The notes: generated by a model not told the origin, from the sequence alone. DNA of 64,000 bases from Coriobacteriales bacterium (GCA_031264075.1 JAISEO010000060.1:6354-70353); one strand, 5' to 3'; shown: positions 99 to 51,591, numbered from the stretch's first letter. Numbers and translations are program-made.

Positions 99-722
99 CT
101 ACTTCAACAGATACACATTGGGCCCGGTGCCCATTTCGGTCAAGAGTTGTGTGTAATCACGCGTAGCAATCTGCTTGGCTATGTCAGAGTCTGGATCATC
201 CAAGTCTCCAAAACAGCGGGCTTGGGTTGGACATATCTCGATGCAGGCAGGCATATCGCCTCTGTCCACACGGTGTACACAGAAGGTGCACTTGGTCACG
301 TAATTGATCTCGTGAGCAGGTGCCTCGTCATCTCCTACAGGAAAACCGATAAGCCACTCCGGGTCGGTATCGTAGAAGGTCCGTACCTGATAGGGGCACG
401 CTTCCACACAGAGCTTGCAGCCGATGCAGAGCTCGTTATCCTGTATCACCAGGCCGTCCTCTGTGCGCCGGTACGTAGCATCAACAGGACACACCGACAC
501 ACAGGCGGGATTGCTGCAATGCTGGCAGGCAAGCGTGTAATAGGTTATAGTCAAGCCGTCCGGATAGCTTCCTCCCGGGGTATAGCGAACCTCGCCGCCC
601 TCTGTTTTGCCCTCACTCCACCAGACGGTGTCCGGGAGATTGTTCTCTACCTTGCAGGTCATAGAGCAGGCATTGCAGGCCGAGCAGCGAGCAGTATCAA
701 CAGCCATTCCATAGCGAGTCAT
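99..722 (-). CDS. 4Fe-4S ferredoxin-type electron-transfer subunit (DmsB/NrfC-like) of a molybdopterin oxidoreductase
   Basis: Multiple Cys clusters (CSACNACSMTC, CQHCSNPACVSVC, CIGCKLCVEAC, CTFC...CIEIC). Start placed at MTRYGMAVD (ATG 722), which overlaps the TAA of the upstream catalytic subunit by 1 nt (TAATG). The ORF-track start at 758 would lie inside that gene. Confidence 0.85.
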   Translation of the reverse strand: MTRYGMAVDTARCSACNACSMTCKVENNLPDTVWWSEGKTEGGEVRYTPGGSYPDGLTITYYTLACQHCSNPACVSVCPVDATYRRTEDGLVIQDNELCIGCKLCVEACPYQVRTFYDTDPEWLIGFPVGDDEAPAHEINYVTKCTFCVHRVDRGDMPACIEICPTQARCFGDLDDPDSDIAKQIATRDYTQLLTEMGTGPNVYLLK

Positions 723-3247: not shown

Positions 3248-3322
3248 AGTTCCTCCTAACACTAGTGACCTATACGGCGACAATGCTGCTCCCATCTTCC
3301 TTCAAACGGGGGTCTTCTCTCG

Positions 3323-8634: not shown

Positions 8635-10470
8635 GTGAGCAGTCCCATGCAAGCGAGCAGAAAGCCAGCCCCGATGAACGGTGCCGCGGCCCTGCTGCAC
8701 GCGCTGGAAGACCTCGGCGTTACGCAGGTCTTCGGGCTGCCCGGCGTGCAGAATATCGAGGTCTACGACGCGCTGTTGGCCTCCGACATCCATCACGTGC
8801 TCGCGCGCCACGAGCAGGCGGCGGTGCACATGGCCGACGGCTACGCGCGTGCCACCGGCAGGGTGGGTGTGGTGCTCGCCACCAGCGGCCCGGGCGCCAC
8901 CAACACGGTCACGGGTATTGCCACGGCCTACATGGACTCCGTGCCCGTCGTGGTCATCACCGGCCAGGTGGCCACGGCCTCCATCGGCACCGACGCCTTC
9001 CAGGAGGCCGACATCACCACCATCACCCTGCCCATAACCAAGCACAGCTATCTCATCAAGGAGCCAGGGGAACTGGTGCCCTCGGTGTTTGAGGCCTTCT
9101 ACCTCGCCACGAGCGGCAGGCCGGGCCCGGTGCTCATCGACCTGCCCGGTGACGTGGCACGGGCTCCCGTGCGCTACAGACGCCCCGCGTCTCCGCCCCA
9201 GCTTCCCTCCTACAAGCCCACCATCAAGGGTAATGCGCGGCAGATAAAGGCCGCAGCGGAACTCATAGCGGGCTCAGCGCGCCCGGTGCTGCTCGCCGGT
9301 GGGGGAGCGGTGAGTTCCGGGGCCTCTTCAGAACTCATCACACTGGCGGAGCAGAACACCCTGCCGGTGGTTACAACCCTGCTGGCAAAGGGAGTCTTTC
9401 CCGCCTCGCACCCGCTCTTCCGGGGACAGCCCGGGGTGTATGGGGCGCCTGGAGCAAACGCCGCCCTGCAGGAGGCCGATGTGCTGCTTGCCGTGGGCAC
9501 CCGCTTTTCGGAGCGCGTGACCGCTGAGGCAGAGGGCTTTGCCCCGAATGCCCGGATAATCCACATAGACATCGACCCGGCGGAGATTGGCAAGAACATC
9601 CGCGTGGATGTGCCTATTGTCGGCGACGCTGCCACGGTACTCGCTGCCCTCAGAGAGCGATTGGAAGCAGCGGGAGGCAGGGCTGCGCTCAGCGGGGCTA
9701 CCGGAGAGTATGCTGCGGGCGACGAAGCTGTGCTCAGTGAGGCTGCTGTAAACGGAATCGCACAGGGTGAGGCTGCTGAGAACGGAGCCGTAGGGGACGG
9801 CGTCCTCGACGTCCCGCCACACAACCCGTCATCTGGCGCGGATGCCTTCGGAGAGAATGCGACCAAACACTGCTTTGCGGCCCTGGGAGCCCTGCTACGG
9901 GAACACGACGACGTCATCATCACGACCGACGTGGGGCAGCACCAGCTCTGGGCGAGCCATCTCCTGGACGTGGACGAGCCCCGACGCTTCATCACCTCGG
10001 GTGGGCTGGGCACCATGGGATTCGGTCTGCCGGCGGCACTCGGGGCCCAGGTGGCATGCCCGGAGGCCCTCGTGCTCTGTGTCAGCGGCGACGGCTCGTT
10101 TCAGATGAACCTGCAGGAGATGGCCACGGCAGCCGTGCAGGGCCTGCCCGTCAAAGTGCTGCTGCTCAACAACCACAGCCACGGGCTGGTGAGGCAATGG
10201 CAGGAGCTCTTCCTGGAGCAACGCTACTCCCATACGCTCCTGAGCGATACCCCGGACTATGTTGCCCTGGCCAGGGCCTACGGCTGGGAGGGGCGGACGC
10301 TTGACCTTGCCGACTGGGACAGCGGGGACGGGGCAAGTCGGCGGCTGACAGAGGATCTGTGTTGGCTGCTCGAGACCGAAGGCCCGGCCCTGCTCGACGT
10401 GGTGGTTCCCACAAGCGACCTGCTGGAGCCCATGGTGAGGCCCGGCGGCTCCCTCTCGGAGGTGATCTGA
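8635..10470 (+). CDS. ilvB: Acetolactate synthase (AHAS) large subunit
   Basis: ThDP-enzyme motifs: GAAALLHALEDLGV..VFGLPG, ATSGPGATN, TDVGQHQLW, GGLGTMGFGLPAALGA, GDGSFQMN. Followed by ilvN with a 1-nt overlap. Contains an extra Ala/Gly/Glu-rich insertion (see findings). Confidence 0.9.
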   Translation: MSSPMQASRKPAPMNGAAALLHALEDLGVTQVFGLPGVQNIEVYDALLASDIHHVLARHEQAAVHMADGYARATGRVGVVLATSGPGATNTVTGIATAYMDSVPVVVITGQVATASIGTDAFQEADITTITLPITKHSYLIKEPGELVPSVFEAFYLATSGRPGPVLIDLPGDVARAPVRYRRPASPPQLPSYKPTIKGNARQIKAAAELIAGSARPVLLAGGGAVSSGASSELITLAEQNTLPVVTTLLAKGVFPASHPLFRGQPGVYGAPGANAALQEADVLLAVGTRFSERVTAEAEGFAPNARIIHIDIDPAEIGKNIRVDVPIVGDAATVLAALRERLEAAGGRAALSGATGEYAAGDEAVLSEAAVNGIAQGEAAENGAVGDGVLDVPPHNPSSGADAFGENATKHCFAALGALLREHDDVIITTDVGQHQLWASHLLDVDEPRRFITSGGLGTMGFGLPAALGAQVACPEALVLCVSGDGSFQMNLQEMATAAVQGLPVKVLLLNNHSHGLVRQWQELFLEQRYSHTLLSDTPDYVALARAYGWEGRTLDLADWDSGDGASRRLTEDLCWLLETEGPALLDVVVPTSDLLEPMVRPGGSLSEVI

Positions 10471-17413: not shown

Positions 17414-18999
17414 TGAGGGTACTGATTGCAGAGAAACTGGCTGCCAGCGGTATCAAGCTGCTGGAGGAGGCCGGCCTTGCCGTTGATGTGAGGCTGGGCA
17501 TGAGCCCCGAGGAGCTCGTGGAGGTCATCCCCAACTACGAGGCCCTCATCGTGAGGAGCGCCACCAGGGCCACGCGCGAGGTCATTGAGGCGGGCACGAG
17601 CCTCAGGATTATCGGTCGCGCCGGCGTGGGCGTGGACAACGTGGATGTAGAAGCGGCCACCGAGCGCGGCATTATCGTCTGCAATGCCCCTACCTCCAAT
17701 GTGGTCAGCGCCGCCGAACAGGCGATGTGCCTGCTTCTGGCCAGCGCGCGCAAGACACCCGAGGCCAACGCCTCCATGCAGAAGGGCGAGTGGAACCGTG
17801 CCGCCTTCACGGGCAACGAGCTCTACCAGAAGACGCTCGCCATCTTTGGTCTGGGGCGCATAGGTGGGCTCGTGGCCCAACGCGCCGCCGCCTTTGAGAT
17901 GCAGCTCATCGGCTACGACCCCTACTGCTCCGCGGAGCGCGCCGCCAATCTCGGCGTTACCAAATTTGAGACCATCGAGGAGATTCTCCCTCTCGCTGAC
18001 TTTATCACCGTACATCTGCCCAAGAACAAGGAGACGCTCGGCATGTTCGGCTCCCGGCAGTACGCGCAGATGAAGGACGGCGTCTATCTGGTCAACACGG
18101 CGCGCGGCGGCATCTACAACCTGGCGGAGATGGTGGAATACCTCCAGAATGGCAAGATAGCCGGAGCGGCCATTGACGTGTACGAGACTGAGCCCTGCAC
18201 GAGTTCGCCCCTGCATGGCCTGGACAAGGTCATCCTGACTCCCCATCTCGGTGCCTCAACCGTCGAGGCCCAGGAGCGCGCGGGTGTGCAGATTGCCGAG
18301 TATGTCCTGCTGGGGCTGAGCAACAAGATGGTTCCCACAGCCGTCAACGTCAAGCTGGTGCCTGATGATGTCATGAGCGCGGTGACGCCCTATATCGGGG
18401 CCTGCGAGACGCTCGGTGTCATACTCGCCCAACTGAGCCGTGAGGCCATTTCCAGCGTGGAGCTCACCGTGAGTGGCGACCTGGCCGAATACGACGTGAG
18501 CCTGCTGGGTACGGCGGCCCTGCGCGGCATCTTCTCCCAGCACAGCGACGATCCGGTCAACTTCGTCAACGCCAACTATATCGCCGAGCAGCGTGGCGTT
18601 TCCATCACCATCACCAAGGAACGTCGGCAGGATGAATACACGAGCAAGGCCAGCCTGCTCACGATGAACGGCTCCCAGCGCGTGGAGGTCGGCTGCACCA
18701 CCTCCGGGCCGCTCACCGAGCCACGCATCATCTCACTCTTCGATTACAAACTCGACCTGATACCGCGCAAGTACGTCCTGGTGATGAAGTACGAGGATAC
18801 GCCGGGCAAGCTCGGGCGCATCGGCACGGTGCTGGGCAACGCCAACATCAACATCTCCACGATGGAGATAGGCACGCTGGAAAAGGTCACCGGTGAGGCC
18901 ATCGTCCTCATGAACGTGGATGATCCGGTGCCGCCCGAGGTCTATGACGAGCTGGTTGCGAGCGTGGGAGTCACCGACGGCTGGTTCATCGAACTATAA
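17413..18999 (+). CDS. serA: D-3-phosphoglycerate dehydrogenase, long form with ASB and ACT domains
   Basis: 528 aa. NAD motif GLGRIGGLVAQRA, catalytic region TPHLGAST, and a C-terminal ACT-like segment VLVMKYEDTPGKLGRIGTVLG. Confidence 0.9.
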   Translation: MRVLIAEKLAASGIKLLEEAGLAVDVRLGMSPEELVEVIPNYEALIVRSATRATREVIEAGTSLRIIGRAGVGVDNVDVEAATERGIIVCNAPTSNVVSAAEQAMCLLLASARKTPEANASMQKGEWNRAAFTGNELYQKTLAIFGLGRIGGLVAQRAAAFEMQLIGYDPYCSAERAANLGVTKFETIEEILPLADFITVHLPKNKETLGMFGSRQYAQMKDGVYLVNTARGGIYNLAEMVEYLQNGKIAGAAIDVYETEPCTSSPLHGLDKVILTPHLGASTVEAQERAGVQIAEYVLLGLSNKMVPTAVNVKLVPDDVMSAVTPYIGACETLGVILAQLSREAISSVELTVSGDLAEYDVSLLGTAALRGIFSQHSDDPVNFVNANYIAEQRGVSITITKERRQDEYTSKASLLTMNGSQRVEVGCTTSGPLTEPRIISLFDYKLDLIPRKYVLVMKYEDTPGKLGRIGTVLGNANINISTMEIGTLEKVTGEAIVLMNVDDPVPPEVYDELVASVGVTDGWFIEL

Positions 19000-20020
19000 G
19001 CGTTTCAGTGCCAAGGCTGCCCTTGAGTTGGCCTCGCCGTCCACCTGGGTGGCGTCCATCGGGCCGTGCTGCATCGCGGGCGCCTTTGCGCTGTGCTCTG
19101 CCATGGAGTCTGGCCTTGCGGAGGCCGTCTCCGTGCAGGCAGGCGAGGCTCTGGGCGAAGGGGCGGGGGAGGGAGTGGGCGTGCTCGCCGAGATGGGCAC
19201 CGTGCTCGACGGCCGTTCGGCTCTGTGCTGGGTTCTCATGCTGCTCTGCGCGGTGCTGTTGCAGAGTGCCGTCAATACCCTCAACGACTACCAGGACTTC
19301 AAGAGCGGCCTCGACACGGCTGAGACCATACGGGACGAGACCGACGCGTCCCTCGTCTATAACCAGATAAACCCGCGGAGCGCCCTGGCCTTTGCGCTCG
19401 TGCTGCTGGGCCTGGCGGCTGCTTTGGGAACAGCCGTCGTGCTTCTGACGAGCCTGTGGCTTCTCGTGCCCGCGGCCGTGGCAGCCGCCGCAGTGTGCCT
19501 CTATTCGGCAGGTCCCAAGCCCATCAGCTCGCTCCCGCTTGGCGAGGTGGTGAGCGGGATAGTGATGGGAGGCGTGCTCACCTGTGTGTGCTTCTACGCG
19601 GTGACGCTCAGCTTCTCGAGTGCCGTGGTGGCGCTGGCCGTGGTGCCCACGGTTGCCATCGCGCAGATCATGCTCACCAACAATACCTGTGACACGGCCC
19701 GGGACCGCGCGGCAGGCCGAAGGACGCTGCCCCTCCTCCTCGGCGTGCACAGATCGCGTGTGCTGAATGGCGCCCTGGGCGTGTTTGCCTTTCTCTGGCT
19801 CGGCCTGTTCGTGGTGGGGGAGGGCCTTGCCCCCGGCCTTATCGTCGTGCTCCTGGGCCTTGCGCTCTGCCTGCCCAAACTGGCGACGCTGCTCAAAGGC
19901 CCCTACAGTCTTGAGAACCGCCGCGTGATGATGCACAGTGTTGTCTCCTATAACAGGCTGCTGGATGCCTCAGCGTGTGTTGCCCTGCTGGCGGGAGGAG
20001 TGGCGCGTGCCATCTTCTGA
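18944..20020 (+). CDS. menA: UbiA-family prenyltransferase, 1,4-dihydroxy-2-naphthoate prenyltransferase-like
   Basis: NTLNDYQDFKSGLD (the NxxxDxxD motif) with many TM segments, followed by the menG-like gene. Start uncertain (ATG 18920 or 18944); either overlaps the serA 3' end. Confidence 0.7.
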   Translation: MTSWLRAWESPTAGSSNYKRFSAKAALELASPSTWVASIGPCCIAGAFALCSAMESGLAEAVSVQAGEALGEGAGEGVGVLAEMGTVLDGRSALCWVLMLLCAVLLQSAVNTLNDYQDFKSGLDTAETIRDETDASLVYNQINPRSALAFALVLLGLAAALGTAVVLLTSLWLLVPAAVAAAAVCLYSAGPKPISSLPLGEVVSGIVMGGVLTCVCFYAVTLSFSSAVVALAVVPTVAIAQIMLTNNTCDTARDRAAGRRTLPLLLGVHRSRVLNGALGVFAFLWLGLFVVGEGLAPGLIVVLLGLALCLPKLATLLKGPYSLENRRVMMHSVVSYNRLLDASACVALLAGGVARAIF

Positions 20021-20876
20021 AAAATCTGAGTACGTACACGAAGTCTTTTCCAGGATAGCCGGGTCCTACGACCTGATGAACGACCTGGAGAGCCTGGGGC
20101 TTCATCGTCTCTGGAAGGCGCGGCTCGTGCGCGAGCTTTCTCGTGCAAGGCCTGGGCGCATTCTCGACATCGCCTGTGGTACGGGGGATATCGCCATCGC
20201 TTTGGCAGAGGCCAATCCGGATTGCGAGGTCTTTGGGCTGGACTTCAACGAGGATATGCTGGACATTGCCCGCAGGCGCGCTGCGCGCGAGCTGCCGCTC
20301 GGTTTTGTTGTCAAGGTCAGGCCCGAGGCTGTCCAAGCTCATCCTGCCACTGCTACCGAAGCCGAGGAATCTTCGAGTGCGCAGCGCACAATTGGGGAGG
20401 AAGGGTCTCTCTTGGCAGAAATCGAGCTGCCTCCCAGCTGTCAGGGTGTCTGTGCGCACACAAGCAACCGCCTCAGCTTTGCCTTAGGTAACGCCCTGGA
20501 GCTGCCCTACGCGGAAGCGAGCTTTGATGCCGTGAGCATCTCCTTCGGGCTCCGCAACATGCCTGTCTACGCGGCCGTGTTGGCAGAGATCTACCGGGTG
20601 CTCAGGCCCGGCGGCCAGTTCCGCTGCCTTGAGGCCTCGTATCCCGAGGGCAGGCTCGCCAGGCCTCCGTTCAGGCTCTACTTCAAGTACTGGCTGCCAC
20701 TCCTGGGCAAGCTCGTCGTCAACAGTCCGGAGGAGTACTCCTGGCTCAACACCTCCACCGAGGCGTTTCTCAGCAAGGATGAGCTGGCAGAACTCATGCG
20801 CCAGACCGGCTTTACCCAGGTGAGCTACATGAGCTTCCTCCTGGGTGCCGCGGCCTTGCATCGCGGCACCCGGTAA
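20007..20876 (+). CDS. menG: Demethylmenaquinone/ubiquinone methyltransferase (UbiE/MenG family)
   Basis: Start at GTG 20007 (GGGAGGAG at 19992-19999). Motifs VHEVFSRIAGSYDLMND, ILDIACGTGD (SAM motif I) and FGLRNMP. Carries an insertion of about 50 aa between SAM motifs. Confidence 0.8.
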   Translation: MPSSEKSEYVHEVFSRIAGSYDLMNDLESLGLHRLWKARLVRELSRARPGRILDIACGTGDIAIALAEANPDCEVFGLDFNEDMLDIARRRAARELPLGFVVKVRPEAVQAHPATATEAEESSSAQRTIGEEGSLLAEIELPPSCQGVCAHTSNRLSFALGNALELPYAEASFDAVSISFGLRNMPVYAAVLAEIYRVLRPGGQFRCLEASYPEGRLARPPFRLYFKYWLPLLGKLVVNSPEEYSWLNTSTEAFLSKDELAELMRQTGFTQVSYMSFLLGAAALHRGTR

Positions 20877-41329: not shown

Positions 41330-41601
41330 CAGATGCCACGCACCCGCCTGGCCGCGCATTGGCCGATACCCAACACGCGGATTGGTCGAGAGTAGTACGC
41401 ACGGGAGCACCGGGAACTCCCCACACCCCGCCTCAGCTATCCTCTGCTAGAATAAGGGGTGGCAAGGTTCATTGAAGAAAAGAGAGACATACGCAACGGC
41501 TGCGGTGAGTCGTCGGCTAATCTCGGTGCGGATTGTGAAAGCAACTCCGGCACGGGGATCCATGCTGATTCTGTTGCCGGTTCTCTCTCTGTCGTATTGA
41601 T

Positions 41602-43260
41602 GTGGAGCATCAAGTGACGAAGGACCAAGATAACAGCAGACCGCGGAGTATTCCCAGTCCCCTCGGTTCGCTTGTCGCCTCGCTCCGATATCTCGGTCTG
41701 GGGGTTTGGCTGGCGTGGCTGTACCTCATCACGAGCGGCTCGTCGTGGTTGTCCAACACCGATACCGACAGTTCGGCCCTGGTTGGCCTCCTCCTGTACT
41801 TCATAGGAGCGTCAGCGATAATCTGCCTCCTGGCACCCTTCCTCCAGACCTTCTATCAGCGGCTTCTCGGGTCGCGGCCCGCCCTGCTCGTCATCGGGAT
41901 AATGGGAGCGCTTGGTTCTGTGGGTATCGTGATGGCCGGCCCGCACTACCTCCAGAATACCTACATCTTCGTAGTGGGGAGCGTGTTTGCCGGCATCAGC
42001 TCGGCCCTCCTGTCGCTCAGATGTGGACAGGTCTTTGGAGAACTGCGGCCGATACAGACCCTGGTCTTCTCCCTGTTCTCCGAGCTGCTCGTCGTTGCCC
42101 TGTTCTATTTCGTCGTCGGCAACAGCGACTTCTATCCTGTCCCCGATGGCCCGCCGATAAGCGGCATCCTGGCCATGGTCATCCTTCCTGTGCTGGCTGC
42201 CTGGCTGCTCACGCTCAGGGCTTCTGTGAAAGGGGCATCGGAGGCTGGGCAGTCAAATGGTTCCATCGGGGCAAACGGGGCAAACGGAGGCGAGGCCGCG
42301 GAGCTTGAGGCGGGGAGAACTCCTTACGAAGGCCAGGCCCACCCCATCAATACGGTTGTCAAATCGCTGCCGTCCATCTTCTGGAAGTTCCTCATCGTTA
42401 TCTTCGTGTTTGTCGTTGCCAGCCTCATCGCGCGGAGCTTCTTTGTGTCGATGCACATACCGGTAACGACTTCCCTCGACATGAAGACCGCGCTCAACCT
42501 GCGCATGGCCTTTGCCCTCATCATCCTGTTCTTTCTCGCGCGCTTCAACAGGCCGGCAAACTTTGGCAAGCTCTTCCTCTTTGCCATGGTGGCGGTTGCC
42601 ATCGTCTTGATGCTCATCCCGTTTCTGCCTCTCTATAATGTCGTGCTCAGCAGCATTATCGGTTTTGCCAACAGTATCCTCGAACTCATCGTCTGGTGCC
42701 TGCTGGCCACCATTGTGTATGAAAAGCGGGTCTCACCGCTGATTGTCTTTGGCTTCGGGCGCGGTGTGCTCCTGGTGAGCCAGGCCTTTGGCTGGTTTCT
42801 GGGCACGAGCCTGCTGCCGTCGCTCGTCGGGTCGAGCTGGGAGGGCTTCTGCTACCTTGCCCTGGCGTGTCTCATCCTGCTGGCGACGACCCTGCTCTTT
42901 TCAGAGAAGGAGTTCGGGCGCATGTTTGCCGCCATGTCCGGCTACGAGCCGGCAGATGCTGCAACCGCCTATCCGGCCCTTGTGGGCGAAAGCGATGAGC
43001 AGTCCGGCCAACAGGCAGATATGCCCCGCCGTCCCTGGCTCAAAGCCTGCGGACAGCTGGGAAAACAGGCAGGACTTACGGCTCGCGAGCAAGAGGTGTT
43101 CGAGATGATAGCCTTTGGGCGCTCGCCGGAAATCATCTCGCAGAGGCTGTTCATTTCGCTCAATACCGTGAGGACGCACATCCATAACATCTATGCCAAA
43201 CTGGACGTGCATTCCAAGCAGGAACTCATGGAGCGCATCGAGAGCGAACGACAGGCGTAA
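41602..43260 (+). CDS. Polytopic-membrane LuxR-family transcriptional regulator
   Basis: 552 aa with about 10-12 hydrophobic segments. C-terminal LuxR HTH: LTAREQEVFEMIAFGRSPEIISQRLFISLNTVRTHIHNIYAKLDVHSKQEL. GTG start. Confidence 0.8.
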   Translation: MEHQVTKDQDNSRPRSIPSPLGSLVASLRYLGLGVWLAWLYLITSGSSWLSNTDTDSSALVGLLLYFIGASAIICLLAPFLQTFYQRLLGSRPALLVIGIMGALGSVGIVMAGPHYLQNTYIFVVGSVFAGISSALLSLRCGQVFGELRPIQTLVFSLFSELLVVALFYFVVGNSDFYPVPDGPPISGILAMVILPVLAAWLLTLRASVKGASEAGQSNGSIGANGANGGEAAELEAGRTPYEGQAHPINTVVKSLPSIFWKFLIVIFVFVVASLIARSFFVSMHIPVTTSLDMKTALNLRMAFALIILFFLARFNRPANFGKLFLFAMVAVAIVLMLIPFLPLYNVVLSSIIGFANSILELIVWCLLATIVYEKRVSPLIVFGFGRGVLLVSQAFGWFLGTSLLPSLVGSSWEGFCYLALACLILLATTLLFSEKEFGRMFAAMSGYEPADAATAYPALVGESDEQSGQQADMPRRPWLKACGQLGKQAGLTAREQEVFEMIAFGRSPEIISQRLFISLNTVRTHIHNIYAKLDVHSKQELMERIESERQA

Positions 43261-43512
43261 AACCGATACAATAACGGCACGCGCAGGGCAGGGAGCGAGC
43301 AGGGCAGCTATCAGACCAGTATGCTGCACACATCCGAGCCTCTCAACAAAAATCAATTAGAACAAACTGCATGAGAAAACGGCATGGCAAACCATGAATC
43401 ATCAATCCTTGGGTATTGTCCTGCGCGGAGTTCAGCCATAGACTGCAAAAAGAGAGAAACATCACATCCAAATGTATAGTAGCACGATGAGCTGCGAGGA
43501 GGCTGCTGACCG

Positions 43513-44172
43513 ATGCCCACTACCGATTGTGCGTTTGAAGAACGCTTCTCCACGTCCTGCGATCTGTTGCGAGCTAACACGCTCAATCGCCCCATTCTCT
43601 ACAAGATACTCAAGGCCTGCGCTGTAGAGCGTATGCCCCTGTTTGAGTTGGAGCTCTTCATTGGTGAGCAGCCCGAGGCACAGAGCGCTACGCAGCCACC
43701 CTACTTTCTCATACAATGGCTCGTTGACGCCGGCTCACTCGATGTCTATGAGCTTGACGATGAGGGCGTTGACGTCACCGACGAACGCAAGGAGGGTCTC
43801 AGTGAGGATGAAATCGACGACCTCATTTTTGAGACCGCCTATCGCACCAACGAGGTGGGGCTGGCGGTCCTCGGAGAGTTCGACCCCACCGCACGTCTCA
43901 AAACCCTGTTCGAGACGGTGCCGGAGCGCTTGAGCACCTATGCCGAGCTCCTCAGCTTTCTCGAAGAACCGCGCGCCTACGTGGAAGTTGATGCCCTGTT
44001 GCGCGGACGCGACATATTGATGCTGGGACGCGACGAAGGCGATCGCCCCCTGCAACCGAGTGTATTCCTCGACAAGCTGGCCGCCGCTGGTGGCATAGTC
44101 TGGAGCGAAGGTTGGATAATCACAGACGAAGGGAAGGAGCTATTGGAGGCCATCAGAACAGAGGAGGAGTAA
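43513..44172 (+). CDS. Hypothetical acidic cytoplasmic protein, no family recognised
   Basis: 219-aa ORF between the LuxR regulator and the Mo-enzyme operon. Coding-like composition, no TM segments, no motif I can name. Confidence 0.45.
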   Translation: MPTTDCAFEERFSTSCDLLRANTLNRPILYKILKACAVERMPLFELELFIGEQPEAQSATQPPYFLIQWLVDAGSLDVYELDDEGVDVTDERKEGLSEDEIDDLIFETAYRTNEVGLAVLGEFDPTARLKTLFETVPERLSTYAELLSFLEEPRAYVEVDALLRGRDILMLGRDEGDRPLQPSVFLDKLAAAGGIVWSEGWIITDEGKELLEAIRTEEE

Positions 44173-44245
44173 GCAGGCACGTCGAGTCAAAGAGTCAATG
44201 AGTCACATAAGTCAACTGAGTCAAATGGGAAGGAAAGGAGTACGT

Positions 44246-47200
44246 ATGCAAGAAGCAACCTTAACACGTCGTAGCTTTGTCAAAGCCGCGACAATCGCCG
44301 GTGCGGTTCTGGCTGGCGGTTCCGCCCTCACCGGGTGTCTCCAACAGGGAGGCTCGGACGGAGGCGGAGGCGGTACGCAGGTAGGAGGTCGTGTATTCTA
44401 TAATTCCATCTGCCACGGCTGTATCCAGGCCTGCCCCTGCAAGGTGTATGTGGAGGATGGCGTGGTCGTCAAGATTGAGGGCCATCCCGACGCTCCCACT
44501 AATCTGGGTTCGCTCTGTCTCAAGGGCCTCAATCAGATCCATACCTGCTACAGTCCCCGCCGCGTGCTGTATCCGCTCAGGCGTACCGGCGCTCGGGGAG
44601 CGGCAACCGCCGCCTGGGAGCGTATCAGCTGGGACGAGGCCGTTGAGTTGGCCGCAGTAAAAATCGCCGAGACCATCGAGAAGTACGGCACCTACGCGTT
44701 CTTCTGCTCGGTAGGCGGTGGCGGTGCCTATTCGTTCATGCAGGCGATGACCACGCCTATGGCGCTGGGATCTCCCACGGTCTTTGAGCCCGGCTGTGCA
44801 CAGTGCTACCTGCCACGCATCACCGAGGCAGCCTATATGTACGGCGGGGCCGACCAGTCCATTGCCGACTGTGCCGTGCTCGAGCCCTTCAAGGGCCTGG
44901 CTCCCCTCGAAGAGGCCAAGGGCGTCACGCAGGACACCAAGGTGCTCGTGCTCTGGGCAGCCCAGCCTTCCGTCTCGCAGACCGCACAGTCCGGTCGCGG
45001 CATGGCCGAGCTGCGCGCGCGCGGATGCAAGACCATCGTCGTTGACCCCAACTTCTCGCCGGACGCCGTCAAGGCGACCATTCACCTGCCCGTACGTCCG
45101 GGCTCGGACGCCGCGCTGATCCTCAGTTGGTACCGCGTCATCCTCGACGAGAAGCTCTACGATGAGGAGTTCATCAAGTTCTGGACCAATATGCCCTTCC
45201 TCATCAATCCGGGCACCAAGCTCCCGTGGCTGGCGGCTGAGGCGATAGAAGGCTACACCATTCCCGCCGACATGCCGGAGGATACACCGGTCTATCTGTG
45301 CGTGGACGAGAACACCGGCCAGGTCGCTCCTCTGCCCTTTGGCGACCCGGCCAAAGTCAAGGCAACGGTTAACCCGCAGGTACTCGCCACTGCCACCGTA
45401 AACGGCGCGGAGTCCAAGTCCGCTGCCCAGATCTACCGTGACGAGGCAGAGCCGTGGACACTTGCCAGGGCCGCCGAGTTCTGCTGGGTACCCGAAGACC
45501 GCATCCGTGCGGCCATCGACCTCTACACCGGCGCGGAAGTTGCCGGCATCGCCAACGGCGTGGCCTCCGACATGGAAGAGACCGCCTCACAGGTGCCGGT
45601 GGGCCTGATGGGCCTGGACATGATAATGGGCTATATCAACAAGCCCGGCGCCACCATGACCCAGAACGGGCCCCTGCCCGCCGAAGGAGAGGCACCACGC
45701 CCCACGATGTTCTGGAATGGTTTTGGCGGCATGTTCGGCCAGATGTACGGCATCGGCTACGAGGTCGGCGCTACCAAGGAGGCCAACGAGGCACGCATCA
45801 AGGCCATCGAGGACGGCACGAATCCCGAGGCCCCACCCTTCCAGAATGGCCCCACCCTGTTTGCGATGAACCAGCTGCTGCTTGACCGCCTCGGCATGAA
45901 GAACCATCGCGGCCTCTACAACTGGTGTCACAGCCACATCCCCAGCGTCCGCGAAGCTATCGAGACGGGCGAACCCTTCAAGCCGCGCGTCTGGTTTGAT
46001 ATGAGTGGCAACAAGTTTGCCGTGCTGGGGAGCGCCGGTGCCTGGTACAACGCCATCATGAACGACGGCCCGGAGTTCATCATCTGCCAGTATCCGATGA
46101 TCACCTCCTTCCAGATAGAGGTTGCCGACCTCATCTTCCCGCTTGAGGAATGGCTGGAGGCCACCGGTGCCTCTGAGTTCGGTCAGCTCAATTACGGCTT
46201 CCCGAGCCCGGGTGTCATCCATCTGGGTGAGACGGTACCCAACTCCGTGCCGCCCAAACGCGTGGTTGATGCCGCTTCGGTCCTGCTCAATGAGAAGCTC
46301 GACAGCGTCACCTTCGGTGCCACCGGCAAGTCGATGACGGAGATGGAACTGCAGTTCCCGCTTGGCCTGGGTGTCATGGGTGGCATCAACAGCGAGGAAG
46401 AGGTCTGGGCTACACAGATAGCAGCCTATGGCGGAGTCCTCGGCCTGGACGAGGGCGCCACACGAGAGGATTATCTCGAGGCGGCCAAGAACCGCGCCGA
46501 TGCCTACAACGTCACCCCACCGGATCAGTACTGGACCTATGGTCAGCATCTGGTCACCGCCAACGACGGCCTGCCCATGGGCTTTGCCACCGAGAGTCGC
46601 AAATGCGAGGTCTACAACACGCTGCACATCAAGCTCAGCCGCACCGGTTGGCCCTACTGCTACCCGCGCGAGCTTGGCCCCATCGACCCACGCGCCGGCA
46701 CCTGGGGAGGCGACTACTCGCCCATTTGCAATGTGCCCGTCCAAAAAGAGGTGCCCGAGATAGCCAATGGTGGCGATTTCGTCGCACCCTACGACCCCGA
46801 GTTCCCGCTGGCCATCACCTCCGGGCGCGTCTACTACTTCCATCACGGCACGATGCGCCATGCACCCTTTGCCCGCGAGCTCTATCCGGCACCCTTTGTG
46901 CGCATCAATCCGGCCACGGCCGCTCAGTACGGCATCGCCGACGGAGACTGGGTCGAGATCTCGTCGAGGCGCACCCAGGGCTCGGAGTATGTCAAAGGCA
47001 CGGGTCTTGAGCTCTCCTACTCCGGCACCAAGGAGCAGAACACCAAGACGGCAGAGCCCATTCGCACCATCGCCTATGTGGCCGAGGTCGTTGCTCCGGG
47101 CGTGCTGTGGATGGAGCGCTTCTGGAATCCCGAGTGCTTCGACTCCTCGCAGCCCAACAAGACGGGCGGCTGGCAGGAATGCAATGTCAACGTCATCACC

Positions 47201-47434
47201 AACGCTATCGACTGCAATTTCAACGAGGTCTTTGGCTCCTATACCAACCGCGGCTTTACCGTCAACATCAAGAAGTCGGAGCGGCCCGCAAACGTCTGGA
47301 TTGAGCCCAGGGAGTTTGAGCCCTTCATGCCCACCACCGCCAACGAGTACGTGGCTGACATCGGTGTGGCCAGGGATAACAAAGAGCTGCTCACGCCCAT
47401 CGTTGAATTTGCTGCGACAGAAGGAGGTGCCTGA
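44246..47434 (+). CDS. Large (~1060 aa) molybdopterin (bis-MGD) oxidoreductase catalytic subunit with Tat signal and lipobox
   Basis: Start at MQEATLTRRSFVKAATIAGAVLAGGSALTGC (ATG 44246; GGAAAGGAG at 44232-44240). FeS motif CHGCIQACPC...GSLCLKG. DMSO-reductase-family architecture. 1-nt overlap with the FeS subunit gene. Confidence 0.9.
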   Translation: MQEATLTRRSFVKAATIAGAVLAGGSALTGCLQQGGSDGGGGGTQVGGRVFYNSICHGCIQACPCKVYVEDGVVVKIEGHPDAPTNLGSLCLKGLNQIHTCYSPRRVLYPLRRTGARGAATAAWERISWDEAVELAAVKIAETIEKYGTYAFFCSVGGGGAYSFMQAMTTPMALGSPTVFEPGCAQCYLPRITEAAYMYGGADQSIADCAVLEPFKGLAPLEEAKGVTQDTKVLVLWAAQPSVSQTAQSGRGMAELRARGCKTIVVDPNFSPDAVKATIHLPVRPGSDAALILSWYRVILDEKLYDEEFIKFWTNMPFLINPGTKLPWLAAEAIEGYTIPADMPEDTPVYLCVDENTGQVAPLPFGDPAKVKATVNPQVLATATVNGAESKSAAQIYRDEAEPWTLARAAEFCWVPEDRIRAAIDLYTGAEVAGIANGVASDMEETASQVPVGLMGLDMIMGYINKPGATMTQNGPLPAEGEAPRPTMFWNGFGGMFGQMYGIGYEVGATKEANEARIKAIEDGTNPEAPPFQNGPTLFAMNQLLLDRLGMKNHRGLYNWCHSHIPSVREAIETGEPFKPRVWFDMSGNKFAVLGSAGAWYNAIMNDGPEFIICQYPMITSFQIEVADLIFPLEEWLEATGASEFGQLNYGFPSPGVIHLGETVPNSVPPKRVVDAASVLLNEKLDSVTFGATGKSMTEMELQFPLGLGVMGGINSEEEVWATQIAAYGGVLGLDEGATREDYLEAAKNRADAYNVTPPDQYWTYGQHLVTANDGLPMGFATESRKCEVYNTLHIKLSRTGWPYCYPRELGPIDPRAGTWGGDYSPICNVPVQKEVPEIANGGDFVAPYDPEFPLAITSGRVYYFHHGTMRHAPFARELYPAPFVRINPATAAQYGIADGDWVEISSRRTQGSEYVKGTGLELSYSGTKEQNTKTAEPIRTIAYVAEVVAPGVLWMERFWNPECFDSSQPNKTGGWQECNVNVITNAIDCNFNEVFGSYTNRGFTVNIKKSERPANVWIEPREFEPFMPTTANEYVADIGVARDNKELLTPIVEFAATEGGA

Positions 47435-48096
47435 TGCCTAAGAGAACACTCGTCATAGACCTCGACCGGTGCTCCGGTTGCGACAGCTGTGTCGTGGCCT
47501 GCAAGTTCGAGAACAATATCGGCCTGGGCAACTACTGGAACCACGTCAAGCCCGTTAACCCGGTTGGCACCCATCCCAATATCGACATGTACTGGGTGCC
47601 CCTGCAGTGTCAGCAGTGCGAGAATTCGCCCTGTATCACCGCCTGCCCCACGGGTGCCTCCTACCGAGACCCCGACAATAATGTCGTGCTCATCAACAAG
47701 GAGGAGTGCATAGGCTGCAAGACCTGTCTGCCCGCGTGTCCGTATTCCTCACCCGAAGGCAACGTGCGTCCCAGCGTGCGGTGGTTTAACGTGGAGGAGA
47801 ACGTCACCGAGAAGTGCACGCTCTGCAACCATCTCACTGCCGCCTCCGACGGCGTGGAAAACACCGAGGACACCACCGATCCGGCCCATGCCGTGCCGCC
47901 TTGCGTGCACAACTGCTCGTGCGGTGCGCGCTCCTACGGCGATCTGGAAGACCCCGACTCCAAGGCCAGCCAGGTGCTCGCCCGGGCCGAGGCCGACGGG
48001 CGCAAGGTCTGCATGATAGAGGCCGAGGGCGTCATGCCCGCTGCCCGCTACATCCTTTCGGAGAGCATAGCCGCGTGGAGAGGGCTGGGTGATTAA
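47434..48096 (+). CDS. 4Fe-4S ferredoxin-type subunit (DmsB-like)
   Basis: CSGCDSCVVAC, CQQCENSPCITAC, CIGCKTCLPAC and CTLC...C..NC clusters. Confidence 0.9.
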   Translation: MPKRTLVIDLDRCSGCDSCVVACKFENNIGLGNYWNHVKPVNPVGTHPNIDMYWVPLQCQQCENSPCITACPTGASYRDPDNNVVLINKEECIGCKTCLPACPYSSPEGNVRPSVRWFNVEENVTEKCTLCNHLTAASDGVENTEDTTDPAHAVPPCVHNCSCGARSYGDLEDPDSKASQVLARAEADGRKVCMIEAEGVMPAARYILSESIAAWRGLGD

Positions 48097-48973
48097 AACG
48101 GCAATCCCGTGGCTGGCGGTTCTCTTCAAGCTGCTTGCAGCCACAGGCTCGGGGGTACTCGCTTTTGCGGGTATCTCCGAGCTTGTCGGTTCCGGCGACG
48201 CTCGCGAGCTGCGCCCACAGGCCGCTCTCAGGGCAGCCATCGTGGCGCTGGCGCTCGTCGTGTGTGGCGGCGTGCTGTATATACTCCGTCTCGGCAGTCC
48301 CGCGCAGGCCATGGCGATAGTCCGCAACGTTTCCAGCGGCTCACCGGCCTCCTGGGAGTTCCTCATCTACCTGCTGCTGCTCGTCTGTAGCGTCGTCTGC
48401 CTGGTGCGGGTGCGCCGCGAGGGGAGCCTTGGCGGCGTGTTGAGTGTCGTGTGTATCGTGTTGGCTCTGGCAATGGGCTTCATCACCGGTTACAGCCATA
48501 TGGCCATGACCGGCACCCCTGCCTGGCACACCCCGGCCATTCCCGCGGGCTTTATGGCAAGCGCTCTGCTGCTGGGCGGCTTTATCTCCGTGTCTCTGGC
48601 GGGACAGAGCTCCAGCGAAGCTTCAGGGGAAGACCGGGAATCCCCAGAGGAGGGTCAGGAAGGCCAGGCTTCCCCAGGCGAGGACAGGGCAAAGAGAATA
48701 GCTTGGATACTCGTCGCGCTTGCTCTCATTACGGCTGTCTCTGCGGTGCTATTCGGCATTCCGGCATCGTTTGGCCCGGAGACGCTGCTATACTGGATAG
48801 CGGTGCCGGTCATAGGCGGTGTGGCATCTGCCTTTGCGGCCGTGCTCGCTGCTCGCACACGGGCACCCTGGTGGGCCTACGTCGGCGTGCTCTGCTCCCT
48901 TGTGGGCGCCTTGGTGTTCAGGGTGTCGCTTTGGCTGGTGGGCAGCACCATTCCTACCCTGTTGAGAGGGTGA
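48089..48973 (+). CDS. DmsC-like polytopic membrane anchor subunit
   Basis: GTG start overlapping the FeS gene by 8 nt. 294 aa with about 8 hydrophobic segments. Positionally equivalent to DmsC. Sequence motifs are weak. Confidence 0.65.
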   Translation: MIKTAIPWLAVLFKLLAATGSGVLAFAGISELVGSGDARELRPQAALRAAIVALALVVCGGVLYILRLGSPAQAMAIVRNVSSGSPASWEFLIYLLLLVCSVVCLVRVRREGSLGGVLSVVCIVLALAMGFITGYSHMAMTGTPAWHTPAIPAGFMASALLLGGFISVSLAGQSSSEASGEDRESPEEGQEGQASPGEDRAKRIAWILVALALITAVSAVLFGIPASFGPETLLYWIAVPVIGGVASAFAAVLAARTRAPWWAYVGVLCSLVGALVFRVSLWLVGSTIPTLLRG

Positions 48974-49029
48974 TCCCTCCCGAGAAGGCAGGCCCTTGAG
49001 ACAGCGGCCCCGCTCCAGAAAGGAATCGC

Positions 49030-49722
49030 ATGACCATCCCAGATAAGGCTCTCATCACCAGTGTGCTCGCAGAACGTGAAGCGAGCTACCGCATGCTCTC
49101 GCGTCTGTACCTGAAGCCCTTGAGCGAGCAGGACATAGACGAGCTGGCAGCCGTTGACTTTGTGGCAGCAGCCAAAGCGCTTGAAGAGGAGGGGCTCCTT
49201 TCCAAAGGCTTCAACGACATGGGCCGCGCCCTCACCAAACGCCATACCGGCACGCGTCAGCAGCTGGCCACCGACTTTACGATGTGTTTTGACGGCGTGG
49301 AAGCCTTGGAGGGCCAGGTCGCCGTGCCCTACGCGAGCGTGTTCCTCTCCGAGAAGGCGCTGTTGAACCAGGAGCCGCGTCATGAGGTCTACCGACTCTT
49401 CCGCTCCGAGTCCATAAGCCTCAAACGGGGCGTGAATCTGCCCGAGGATCACCTGAGCTTTGAGTTGGAGTTTCTGGCCATACTGTCCCAGCGTGCGGGA
49501 GAGGCGCTTGCGGCTGAGGACGCGGACGAGCTGGTCCGTAATCTCGAACTCTCCCGTAGCTTCATCAACGAATACATCCTCATCTGGTTCCCGCTGTTTC
49601 GCGACCGTGCCCTGAGGATACTCAAGACCCGCTTCTACCGCGGCGTGCTGGAGGCGACGGAGGGCTATCTGGAACTCGACCTCACCACCATCGACGGTCT
49701 TATGGAGACAGCTCGCGCATGA
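49030..49722 (+). CDS. TorD/DmsD-family redox-enzyme maturation chaperone
   Basis: MLSRLYLKPLSEQDI... and the conserved LPEDHLSFELEFLAIL motif. Confidence 0.75.
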   Translation: MTIPDKALITSVLAEREASYRMLSRLYLKPLSEQDIDELAAVDFVAAAKALEEEGLLSKGFNDMGRALTKRHTGTRQQLATDFTMCFDGVEALEGQVAVPYASVFLSEKALLNQEPRHEVYRLFRSESISLKRGVNLPEDHLSFELEFLAILSQRAGEALAAEDADELVRNLELSRSFINEYILIWFPLFRDRALRILKTRFYRGVLEATEGYLELDLTTIDGLMETARA

Positions 49723-50432
49723 CGGTGCTCTCCCGGCGTGAGATGCTCTGTGGTGTTGCGGGGGCAGCGGTGCTCCTGGGCCTGGGCGGTGGTGCCCGGT
49801 ATGCTTTCGGTAATGCCTCGCTCGTGCGTCCCCCGGGCGGCCAGGACGAGGCGCACCTGCTTGCCACCTGTATCAAGTGCTCCCGCTGTCGTATGGCCTG
49901 CCCGCGCGATGCCATAGCGGTCAGTGGCCTGGAGGACGGCGCCATCAACGCCCGCACTCCCAAGATGAACTTTCGCAGGGCGCTCTACGTGCCTCCTTCC
50001 GGCTCCCAGATAGAGGAAGGTAGCTCTGCAAGCTCGAGAGCCGGGTCTCTCAGTGCCGAGCAGGGCCTCGATACCCTGCTTCGCTCAGGTGGTGCAGCCT
50101 ACTGCGACTTCTGCAATCTCTGCATCGAGAACTGTCCCACCGGCGCGCTCAGGCCCTTCGACGCACTGGCATTGTGGATAGGCAAAGCCGTTGTCGTACC
50201 CGAGCGCTGTATCGCCTACGACAACAAGGGCGGCTGCCGCAAATGCGTGGACTACTGCCCATTTGGCGCCATCAGTCTGGACGAGAACGAATATCCTGTG
50301 GTAGACCTCACCCGCTGCAATGGCTGCGGGGTCTGCGAGAACATCTGCCCGACGGATACCTATCGCAGCTACACGGGCGACTCCCGCCGTGGCATCAACA
50401 TCGTGGTTGCCACAGAGGAGCGGCCGACATGA
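49719..50432 (+). CDS. NapG-like periplasmic 4Fe-4S ferredoxin with Tat-type signal
   Basis: LSRREMLCGVAGAAVLLGLGGGA leader. CIKCSRCRMACP, CDFCNLCIENCP, C.KCVDYCP and CNGCGVCENICP clusters. ATGA overlap with the chaperone gene. Confidence 0.7.
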   Translation: MTVLSRREMLCGVAGAAVLLGLGGGARYAFGNASLVRPPGGQDEAHLLATCIKCSRCRMACPRDAIAVSGLEDGAINARTPKMNFRRALYVPPSGSQIEEGSSASSRAGSLSAEQGLDTLLRSGGAAYCDFCNLCIENCPTGALRPFDALALWIGKAVVVPERCIAYDNKGGCRKCVDYCPFGAISLDENEYPVVDLTRCNGCGVCENICPTDTYRSYTGDSRRGINIVVATEERPT

Positions 50433-50529
50433 GCAGGAGGAAGCAGGCTCCCAGCCACACACAGGCACACGGCATCTGTAGCTTCAGGCAGCCCCTGCGG
50501 TGGTGTGGGGCAGCTGAAGGGCGGTTGCG

Positions 50530-51591
50530 ATGAAGCCCAAGCCTGAGAAGTCCGTCAATATCGCAGGCCCGCCAGATACCCCTCCGCCTGAGAAGTCCAT
50601 GAAGAAGGCGAAGCCGGGGAAGTTCACCCTGCTGCGCCGCCTGACGATAGGCGCGGTCTTTGTGCTGGTGCTAGTTGGCCTTGTCTTTCATACCGGCACC
50701 GGCACCCTGTCCTCCTTTGGCTGGCGTAGCATCGCCGCCCTGTGCCCGCTCGGTGCCATCGAGTCCTTCCTGGCAGACCAGACCATCTTTCCCCGTGCGC
50801 TTATCGTCCTTGTTGCCGTCATAGCTCTGGGCGCGCTCCTGGGCAAGTTCTTCTGCGCGTGGCTCTGCCCCGTGCCACCGCTACGCTCGCTTTTCAAACG
50901 CAAGGGAAGTAGCACCGGAAAAAGCGCCACCTTGAAACCTTCTGACAGACCAGCGGACAGCGGCAAAGAAGAGGAGTCCATCGCGACGGACGGGTGCGGC
51001 CAGGACGACCATGCCTTGGAGCTCAAAGGCACAGAGTCTCCCTGTGCGAACGGATGCGACTCCTGCGCGAAGAAGCGTGCGAAAATCGACTCGCGGCATA
51101 TCGTCTTAGGGGGAGCGCTGCTCTCCACAGCTGTGTTTGGGTTTCCGGTGTTCTGCCTCGTCTGCCCGGTGGGACTCGTCTTTGCCACCGTCATCGCCTT
51201 CTGGAACTGGATAGGCTTCAACGACCTCACCCTGTCGCTCGTGGTCTTTCCCGCCATCCTCATCGTAGAGGTCCTCGTGCTCAGGAAGTGGTGTCTGCGG
51301 TTCTGCCCGCTCGGTGCCGTGGCCTCCCTGATGGCGCTTCCCAACCGCTTCTTCCGCCCCCGGGTGGACAACACGAAATGCCTGCGTTCCAAGGGTGTGG
51401 CGTGCTCGGTCTGCACCGACGCCTGCGATGAGCTGCTCGACCCACACTCCACAGACGGCATGCACGAGTGCACCAAGTGCGGCAAGTGCCTGGAGCGCTG
51501 CCCCGCGCAGGCGATAACGCTGCCGTTTCGCTCGCAGAAGGCCCAGGCGGAAGAGCTGCACAAAATCGATACGAAGAGGGAGCCAGACTAA
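50530..51591 (+). CDS. NapH/MauN-like integral-membrane 4Fe-4S protein
   Basis: TM segments carry the conserved CPLG (twice) and CAWLCP motifs. C-terminal CSVCTDAC and CTKCGKCLERCP clusters. Confidence 0.7.
   Translation: MKPKPEKSVNIAGPPDTPPPEKSMKKAKPGKFTLLRRLTIGAVFVLVLVGLVFHTGTGTLSSFGWRSIAALCPLGAIESFLADQTIFPRALIVLVAVIALGALLGKFFCAWLCPVPPLRSLFKRKGSSTGKSATLKPSDRPADSGKEEESIATDGCGQDDHALELKGTESPCANGCDSCAKKRAKIDSRHIVLGGALLSTAVFGFPVFCLVCPVGLVFATVIAFWNWIGFNDLTLSLVVFPAILIVEVLVLRKWCLRFCPLGAVASLMALPNRFFRPRVDNTKCLRSKGVACSVCTDACDELLDPHSTDGMHECTKCGKCLERCPAQAITLPFRSQKAQAEELHKIDTKREPD

Follow-up and report, generated by a model that had tools for sequence, protein, structure and literature searches.

Within a 64,000-nt window of DNA from a Coriobacteriales bacterium (GCA_031264075.1 JAISEO010000060.1:6354-70353; the window is the whole stretch analysed), positions 41330-51591 carry a gene cluster built around a giant molybdoenzyme with a predicted signal for twin-arginine translocation (Tat). 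We consider it likely that this cluster is a substrate-inducible operon for an extracytoplasmic respiratory reductase of the same kind as the catechol dehydroxylases of Eggerthella, with a catalytic subunit in an uncharacterised sister clade; this confidence covers the type of system and its architecture, not the substrate, which, as the initial annotation had said, cannot be read from the sequence. The accessory proteins that gut catechol dehydroxylases cannot do without (a NapG/NapH-like pair, here NapGH, together with a TorD-like chaperone and an acidic protein of winged-helix type) would then reach beyond the characterised Eggerthella enzymes and would also go with a large uncharacterised sister clade extending into termite-gut Coriobacteriales. 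The architecture of the membrane anchor plus NapGH set is already published, and the existing picture of how such systems are built is left unchanged. With this complete and compact cluster of ~10 kb, the search for enzymes acting on plant and lignin phenolics can be cast more widely.

Position and active site of the catalytic subunit

The catalytic (Mo) subunit (1078 aa from the first ATG, 1062 aa from Met17) has a Tat motif (TRRSF) and a Tat domain (TIGR01409), along with Fe4S4, Molybdopterin and Molydop_binding domains (Pfam); that is, it is a Tat-signal subunit of the bis-(molybdopterin guanine dinucleotide) (bis-MGD) type with an N-terminal [4Fe-4S] cluster (FS0). The initial annotation had put its length ~250 aa above that of DmsA, rightly so, as E. 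coli DmsA has 814 aa. It is also ~300-350 aa longer than polysulfide reductase (Psr) and acetylene hydratase, the excess consisting of several insertion blocks, and relative to shorter members of its own clade the extra length lies in small insertions dispersed along the chain, of which that at 928-954 is the largest.

To place this subunit, we built two trees (FastTree, 135 rows; IQ-TREE, 59 rows) that sample the Mo enzymes encoded here and in Adlercreutzia caecimuris B7, A. equolifaciens, Rubneribacter badeniensis, Denitrobacterium detoxificans and the related loci, and that add DmsA and NapA of E. coli; the two trees agreed. The characterised side (clade I, support 100) was anchored by three entries from the published table of catechol dehydroxylases that occur in the fetched genomes, matched by length and N-terminus (A0A1H8RUQ6, R9KXL1 and A0A2K2U422); the rows do not include Dadh, Hcdh, Cadh, Cldh or acetylene hydratase themselves. 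The query fell in a different clade (clade II, support 100), and clades I and II, together with shorter Gordonibacter-type-like and environmental enzymes, formed a clade (support 97-98) that excludes DmsA-type and NapA-type enzymes. A phylogeny had been suggested by the initial annotation as a check, and with these anchors the subunit sits in sister clade II and not inside the characterised Dadh/Hcdh/Cadh clade. Against clade I members, BLAST aligned ~270-340 residues of the query at 28-32% identity.

The closest relatives of the catalytic subunit (79-95% identity) come from Coriobacteriales metagenome-assembled genomes (MAGs) whose isolate names (Gx481, Rs511, Po218, Lab288, Nt197) we take to denote termite-gut metagenome bins; the host, too, is probably a member of the Coriobacteriales from a termite gut. 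Relatives at 48-55% identity belong to Slackia, Adlercreutzia, Raoultibacter, Rubneribacter, Enterorhabdus and Denitrobacterium. Clade II cassettes were also seen on three contigs binned to Bacillota MAGs (L036, L042 and L043, labelled Lachnospiraceae, Agathobacter rectalis and Acutalibacteraceae), and these are either mis-binned Coriobacteriia contigs or cases of horizontal transfer.

We also inspected the active site, as the initial annotation had advised. The FS0 ligands (Cys72/75/79/107), Lys109, a GGGG segment, and Gln202-Cys203 are all invariant in clade II. In a profile alignment, Cys203 falls on Cys141 of acetylene hydratase, its tungsten (W) ligand, and on Cys173 of Psr, and is probably the Mo/W ligand; the catalytic Asp13 of acetylene hydratase is replaced by Ile76. 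The residues before the ligand Cys differ from those of E. lenta-type enzymes (GGGG vs. GTSR), as does the FS0 motif, which reads CHGCIQACPC in the query vs. CCR[GA]CGKxEC in the characterised enzymes (PMC11887054 supplement).

By profile, the nearest solved relatives are acetylene hydratase (PDB 2e7z) and Psr (PDB 2vpw), at ~1e-70 each, and both share the Cys metal ligand. An AlphaFold2 (AF2) model of the subunit (predicted local distance difference test, pLDDT, 82) likewise has its best structural cores in Psr and acetylene hydratase (TM-scores of 0.79 and 0.78, Foldseek, target-normalised), the Foldseek E-values of this model not separating the DMSO-reductase subfamilies. None of the NCBIfam equivalog cut-offs was reached (score/cut-off: DmsA 122/778, PhsA 140/694, TtrA 50/1750, ArrA 58/1600). 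Acetylene hydratase is a cytoplasmic monomer, whereas the query has a Tat leader and partner subunits; Psr resembles the cluster in its PsrB-like subunit and NrfD-type PsrC, yet has no NapGH, DadhE-like protein, or LuxR partner. With E. coli DmsABC the cluster shares a Tat-dependent catalytic subunit, a four-cluster iron-sulphur (FeS) subunit, an anchor, and a chaperone of the TorD/DmsD family; however, DmsA is placed in another clade by both trees, has a Ser rather than a Cys ligand, and is paired with a DmsC rather than an NrfD anchor. The leader of the query (44246-44338) carries, after its Tat motif, a lipobox-like LTGC end, seen in ~7/33 clade II leaders, most of which have ...GS... instead. 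A reading as a Tat lipoprotein is unsupported, as the Cys is confined to those ~7/33 leaders and the genome, 90% complete, yielded no gene for Lgt.

Regulatory, accessory and membrane proteins

The E. lenta dopamine dehydroxylase cluster (dadh) provides the closest published comparison. In a Gordonibacter host, the enzyme needs more than its core genes (DadhABC and the LuxR protein DadR, with 12 transmembrane (TM) helices) for activity, and the accessory genes encode the hypothetical protein DadhE, the TorD-like DadhF, and DadhG/H, which resemble NapG/NapH by Foldseek (PMC11887054). Loss of dadhC (the anchor), dadS or dadhI was without effect, none of dadhB, dadR and dadhD-H could be spared (DadhD, an accessory protein with a helicase domain, for Dadh expression), AlphaFold3 models have DadhG/H touching DadhB/C, and similar accessory genes go with hcdh and cadh (PMC11887054). 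Counterparts of most of these parts are found here. Our cluster comes from the same bacterial class as those for dadh, hcdh and cadh in E. lenta (PMC11887054, PMC7028382, PMC9734109) and shares with them the Tat-dependent bis-MGD subunit, which has FS0 and, in the ligand position, a Cys; the four-cluster FeS subunit together with the NrfD-type anchor; a neighbouring LuxR protein of 10-12 TM helices; and, among the accessory proteins, an acidic hypothetical protein (likened to DadhE through homologous ORFs that lie before TorD), the TorD-like chaperone and the NapG/NapH-like proteins. It differs in the separate, uncharacterised clade of its catalytic subunit, in the place of the acidic gene (directly upstream of the catalytic gene here, before torD in E. 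lenta), in a regulator that is co-directional rather than divergent, in having no helicase (DadhD), LysR (DadS) or DadhI gene, and in its probable termite-gut rather than human-gut host.

The LuxR-type protein has a GerE helix-turn-helix at residues 492-543 (Pfam E 1.1e-15) behind 440 residues with ~10-11 hydrophobic segments (hydropathy scan), and by these two features it is a predicted adjacent activator of the 10-12-TM type. In E. lenta, this family has been shown to switch on the genes for catechol dehydroxylases (PMC9734109). The link that the initial annotation drew between a membrane LuxR protein beside a Mo enzyme and the catechol dehydroxylases of Eggerthellaceae holds. Homologues stand beside 30/37 related cassettes (here and below, component counts refer to 37 related clade II loci with enough flanking DNA), and by analogy the protein is probably both substrate sensor and activator of the operon.

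The 219-aa acidic protein (48 D/E vs. 20 K/R) adjoins the Mo subunit in 36/37 related loci and has no named family in Pfam, NCBIfam or the ESM Atlas. An alignment of 36 homologues revealed two repeated halves, and in a confident AF2 model (pLDDT 95.5) each half weakly matches PadR/LmrR winged-helix domains (Foldseek E 0.03, TM-score 0.6 on target); the ESM Atlas, as a lead only, also points to double winged-helix proteins. The profile of the protein matched two acidic open reading frames (ORFs) directly upstream of TorD genes in Dadh/Cadh-type clusters of A. equolifaciens (L106:7684-8640, hhalign probability 99.6, E 1e-23; L116:7840-8685, 99.3, E 2e-20). Because these ORFs occupy the position that DadhE has in E. 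lenta, we infer that the acidic protein is a tandem winged-helix member of the DadhE family of accessory factors. Given how acidic its surface is, the protein is not expected to bind DNA, and, with DadhE predicted to contact the catalytic subunit (PMC11887054), it is probably a cytoplasmic biogenesis partner that holds the apo-catalytic subunit. A profile search returned 962 family representatives at 50% clustering and there is no Pfam model, which leaves roughly a thousand sequence clusters of DadhE-like proteins without database annotation.

Beside the catalytic gene lie genes for an FeS subunit and a predicted membrane anchor, and here the DmsB-like/DmsC-like pair of the initial annotation stands in its first half only: the FeS subunit is DmsB/PsrB-like, whereas Pfam assigns the anchor to NrfD (E 1.2e-7; 32.2 bits vs. 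a cut-off of 25.8; ~8 TM helices by hydropathy) and not to the DmsC type. The FeS subunit, present in 37/37 related loci, has four Cys groups and no signal peptide of its own, and is presumably co-exported with the catalytic subunit for that reason. The TorD-like protein (Pfam Nitrate_red_del E 1.1e-24; NCBIfam TorD 96.8 bits vs. a cut-off of 132), also found in 37/37 loci, would by family be a chaperone for Tat proofreading and cofactor insertion.

The NapG-like protein combines a Tat motif (SRREML) with four CxxCxxCxxxC motifs for [4Fe-4S] clusters, and the NapH-like protein, with ~4 TM helices, carries CX3CP motifs (Cys109-113, Cys255-259) and ends in two motifs for [4Fe-4S] clusters. These are the motifs of E. 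coli and Wolinella NapGH, in which two of the clusters of NapH are cytoplasmic; however, full-length identity to the E. coli proteins is only 26% (NapG) and 21% (NapH), scores fall below the NCBIfam cut-offs (NapH 71.5 vs. 234; MauM/NapG 54.5 vs. 178.85), and no nap structural genes occur in the cluster. Where Nap systems have NapA, NapB and NapC, the partners of the pair here are an NrfD anchor and a subunit of DmsB-like type. Identity is higher to the NapG-like (34-37%) and NapH-like (40-45%) proteins of Hcdh-type clusters from Adlercreutzia and Rubneribacter. Residues 120-190 of the NapH-like protein (50887-51099) include a charged, low-complexity loop of ~50-70 aa between TM2 and TM3 with a C-x3-C-x2-C motif; this loop is without counterpart in E. 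coli NapH (49-residue alignment gap).

Recurrence of the cassette, electron route and substrate

To see how far the cassette recurs, we compared the eight proteins by tblastn/blastp with 80 related loci and with regions fetched from four named genomes. The cassette recurs even where catalytic subunits share only 29-35% identity. NapG and NapH are both present in 21/37 related loci; with two mis-called anchor ORFs corrected, anchor and NapGH occur together in 20 loci, both are missing from 15, NapGH stands alone in 1 and the anchor alone in 2 (unpaired cases include L003, L008 and L115). As first counted, this association had an uncorrected Fisher p of ~1e-5. The combination is also found in four clade I clusters (L081, L083, L084 and L106) and is published for E. 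lenta dadh, hcdh and cadh (PMC11887054), so the initial annotation was mistaken in regarding a double membrane module in one operon as unusual. Cassettes without anchor and NapGH often adjoin cassettes with them, e.g. in A. equolifaciens, where one array (L018/L122, record ~1,326-1,372 kb) holds at least five tandem clade II cassettes; all of these have an acidic protein to themselves and most a LuxR gene as well, but only some include anchor and NapGH. This array suggests that membrane modules may be shared among neighbours, as proposed for the cadh array of E. lenta. In Adlercreutzia and Denitrobacterium there are several paralogous cassettes per genome, each with its own LuxR gene, which fits diversified organic substrates; the present genome has a single cassette, with no paralogue of the acidic protein, anchor or NapG.

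From the homologies shown above we infer the following working for the system. The LuxR protein would sense an external small molecule and switch on a promoter in the 252-nt gap, from which the seven downstream genes would be transcribed as one. In the cytoplasm, the TorD-like and DadhE-like proteins would hold the apo-enzyme during insertion of bis-MGD and the FeS cluster; the Mo subunit would then take the signal-less FeS subunit through Tat, and the NapG-like ferredoxin would cross by means of a Tat leader of its own. On the outer side, the enzyme would be seated on the NrfD-type anchor together with NapH/NapG. Electrons from menaquinol would enter by way of the NapH/NapG-like proteins, perhaps with the anchor taking part, and run along the four clusters in the FeS subunit to FS0 and finally to the Mo at Cys203, where the substrate would be reduced. 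Anchor and NapGH would in this working be parts of one input module, not alternatives.

Several observations weigh against this reading of the cluster. The sister relation of clades I and II is only moderately supported (84-85), and no clade II enzyme with a known substrate was found in the literature searched. The CHGC, CRACI, CRGCIQ and CRSCPR motifs are absent from the published catechol dehydroxylase table, and because that table holds no clade II FS0 motif, catechol chemistry is an extrapolation from the sister clade (CRACI-type E. lenta sequences are present, uncharacterised, in a 2020 alignment of 'catechol dehydroxylase homologs'). No DadhD-like helicase ORF is present in 41330-51591, and the equivalences with DadhE, DadhG and DadhH are drawn from position and from homologues in Adlercreutzia clusters rather than from the E. 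lenta sequences. Co-transcription and LuxR control are deduced from spacing and synteny. As for the joint module, six independent tree contrasts gave 3-4 changes in the same direction and 0 in the opposite one (p=0.125-0.25, not significant), and the 15 related cassettes that have neither anchor nor NapGH must do without such a module of their own. Finally, no early menaquinone genes were found in the 90%-complete genome: MqnA was not found, and the sole MenD-like match is an acetolactate synthase (8635-10470).

With regard to the electron route, the initial annotation had held that anchor and NapGH are two independent, alternative routes for oxidising quinol, unusually encoded in one operon. 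Both protein types are indeed quinol dehydrogenase modules elsewhere (Psr/Nrf and Nap, respectively), a few loci carry one without the other, and the dadh anchor is dispensable where G/H are required, so that the two are not strictly interdependent (PMC11887054). Nonetheless, we regard this as decidedly improbable: the combination is common in clade II and recurs in clade I, anchor and NapGH have in most cases been gained or lost together, and published AlphaFold3 models place G/H against B and C as one chain (PMC11887054). It is also unlikely, if somewhat less so, that the NapG/NapH-like pair helps to mature or reductively activate the enzyme, a role that has been proposed for NosR/NosGH towards nitrous oxide reductase, and that turnover electrons arrive through the NrfD anchor. 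The NapGH genes do sit with chaperone genes (TorD and NapG overlap) downstream of the structural genes, the accessory proteins have been grouped as acting 'beyond protein expression' (PMC11887054), the cassettes that have no local copy apparently share the sets of their neighbours (e.g. L018, L122), and the cytoplasmic FeS clusters of NapH could take low-potential electrons. However, a dispensable anchor beside indispensable G/H in dadh is hard to square with the anchor as sole catalytic route (PMC11887054), and NapG, Tat-exported with four clusters, looks like a wire to the FeS subunit. The co-occurrence of anchor and NapGH fits one joint module better than alternative routes, and we take such a module as the better-supported, still putative reading.

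As to the substrate, we tentatively favour, by analogy and at somewhat weaker confidence than an even balance would call for, a plant- or lignin-derived phenolic compound from which an aromatic hydroxyl is removed. The acceptor could instead be inorganic, or a small S/Se/As compound or N/S-oxide, as for Psr-, Phs-, Ttr- or Arr-like enzymes; polysulfide/thiosulfate reductase is among the best solved relatives by sequence (single-sequence E 3.6e-28, profile E 1.1e-70, level with acetylene hydratase), the Cys metal ligand and the NrfD/PsrC-type anchor are as in Psr, and PhsA is the second-best NCBIfam match of the Mo subunit. We find such an acceptor improbable, since the PhsA, TtrA and ArrA scores all lie far under their cut-offs, the nearest clade in the trees is of the Dadh/Hcdh type, a polytopic LuxR protein with many diverged paralogues per genome is the pattern of organic substrates, and the E/F/G/H accessory set is that of catechol dehydroxylases. 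A more far-reaching reading strikes us as rather unlikely, though worth stating: that clade II performs chemistry other than catechol para-dehydroxylation (e.g. reduction or dehydroxylation, in the hindgut of termites, of lignin-derived aromatics that are not catechols), working as a menaquinol:substrate oxidoreductase of five subunits with an obligatory anchor-NapGH module, and that the acidic protein represents a new class of dedicated molybdoenzyme assembly factor. Benzyl ether reductase (Ber) was ruled out as the function, as Ber is a fumarate-reductase-like flavoprotein (10.1101/357640).

Gene order, transcription unit and host genome

Eight + strand ORFs, closely spaced or overlapping, fill 41602-51591 (ORF call of the window; Table 1), and the eight gene calls of the initial annotation were all recovered there.

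Table 1. Genes and intergenic region of the cluster (positions in the window)
Feature	Position	Strand	Size or basis
LuxR-type regulator	41602-43260	+	552 aa; Pfam GerE, hydropathy scan
Intergenic region upstream of operon	43261-43512	+	252 nt
Acidic protein, DadhE-like, putative tandem winged-helix	43513-44172	+	219 aa; hhalign, AF2
bis-MGD catalytic (Mo) subunit, predicted Tat-exported	44198-47434	+	1078 aa; Pfam, NCBIfam
Four-cluster FeS subunit, DmsB/PsrB-like	47434-48096	+	Fer4_11 and related domains
NrfD/PsrC-type membrane anchor	48089-48973	+	294 aa; Pfam NrfD (PF03916)
TorD/DmsD-family chaperone, DadhF-like	49030-49722	+	Pfam Nitrate_red_del
NapG-like Tat-exported ferredoxin, DadhG-like	49719-50432	+	Motifs; NapF and NapG are best families
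NapH-like membrane FeS protein, DadhH-like	50530-51591	+	Motifs; NCBIfam NapH below cut-off

The genes for the acidic protein and the Mo subunit are separated by 25 nt, those for the Mo and FeS subunits overlap by 1 nt, FeS subunit and anchor overlap by 8 nt, and 56 nt lie between anchor and TorD; TorD and NapG overlap by 4 nt (the NapG start lies over the torD stop), and a 97-nt gap separates NapG from NapH. This gap had led the initial annotation to allow for a separate NapGH transcription unit, which is argued against by the TorD-NapG overlap, by the conserved TorD-NapG-NapH order, and by the lack of a terminator-like hairpin in the gap (50433-50529). The cluster is probably a complete and functional operon. 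The 252-nt region is probably its promoter/operator; no sigma-70-like match was found on the + strand of 43261-43512, and the region contains a direct repeat, CGCGCAGGGCAG / CGAGCAGGGCAG (43280-43291 and 43296-43307, 16 nt spacing), with an inverted partner 126 nt downstream (43417-43427). Together these elements (43280-43427) form a candidate operator. The major facilitator superfamily transporter gene downstream was rejected as a part of the system, as it is not conserved along with the cassette.

The assembly (2.18 Mb, 105 contigs, 90% complete) encodes ~22 molybdopterin oxidoreductases, TatC, and an NiFe hydrogenase. A MenA-like polyprenyltransferase for 1,4-dihydroxy-2-naphthoate (DHNA), below curated cut-offs, is followed at 18920-20876 by a MenG/UbiE methyltransferase above its cut-off. 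A quinone pool in the host is plausible, with its synthesis incomplete in the assembly, and the host may make menaquinone from scavenged DHNA. Elsewhere in the window, 99-3295 (- strand) encodes a second Tat molybdoenzyme of 857 aa with an adjoining FeS subunit, which falls on the DmsA side of the trees and is unrelated to the cassette.

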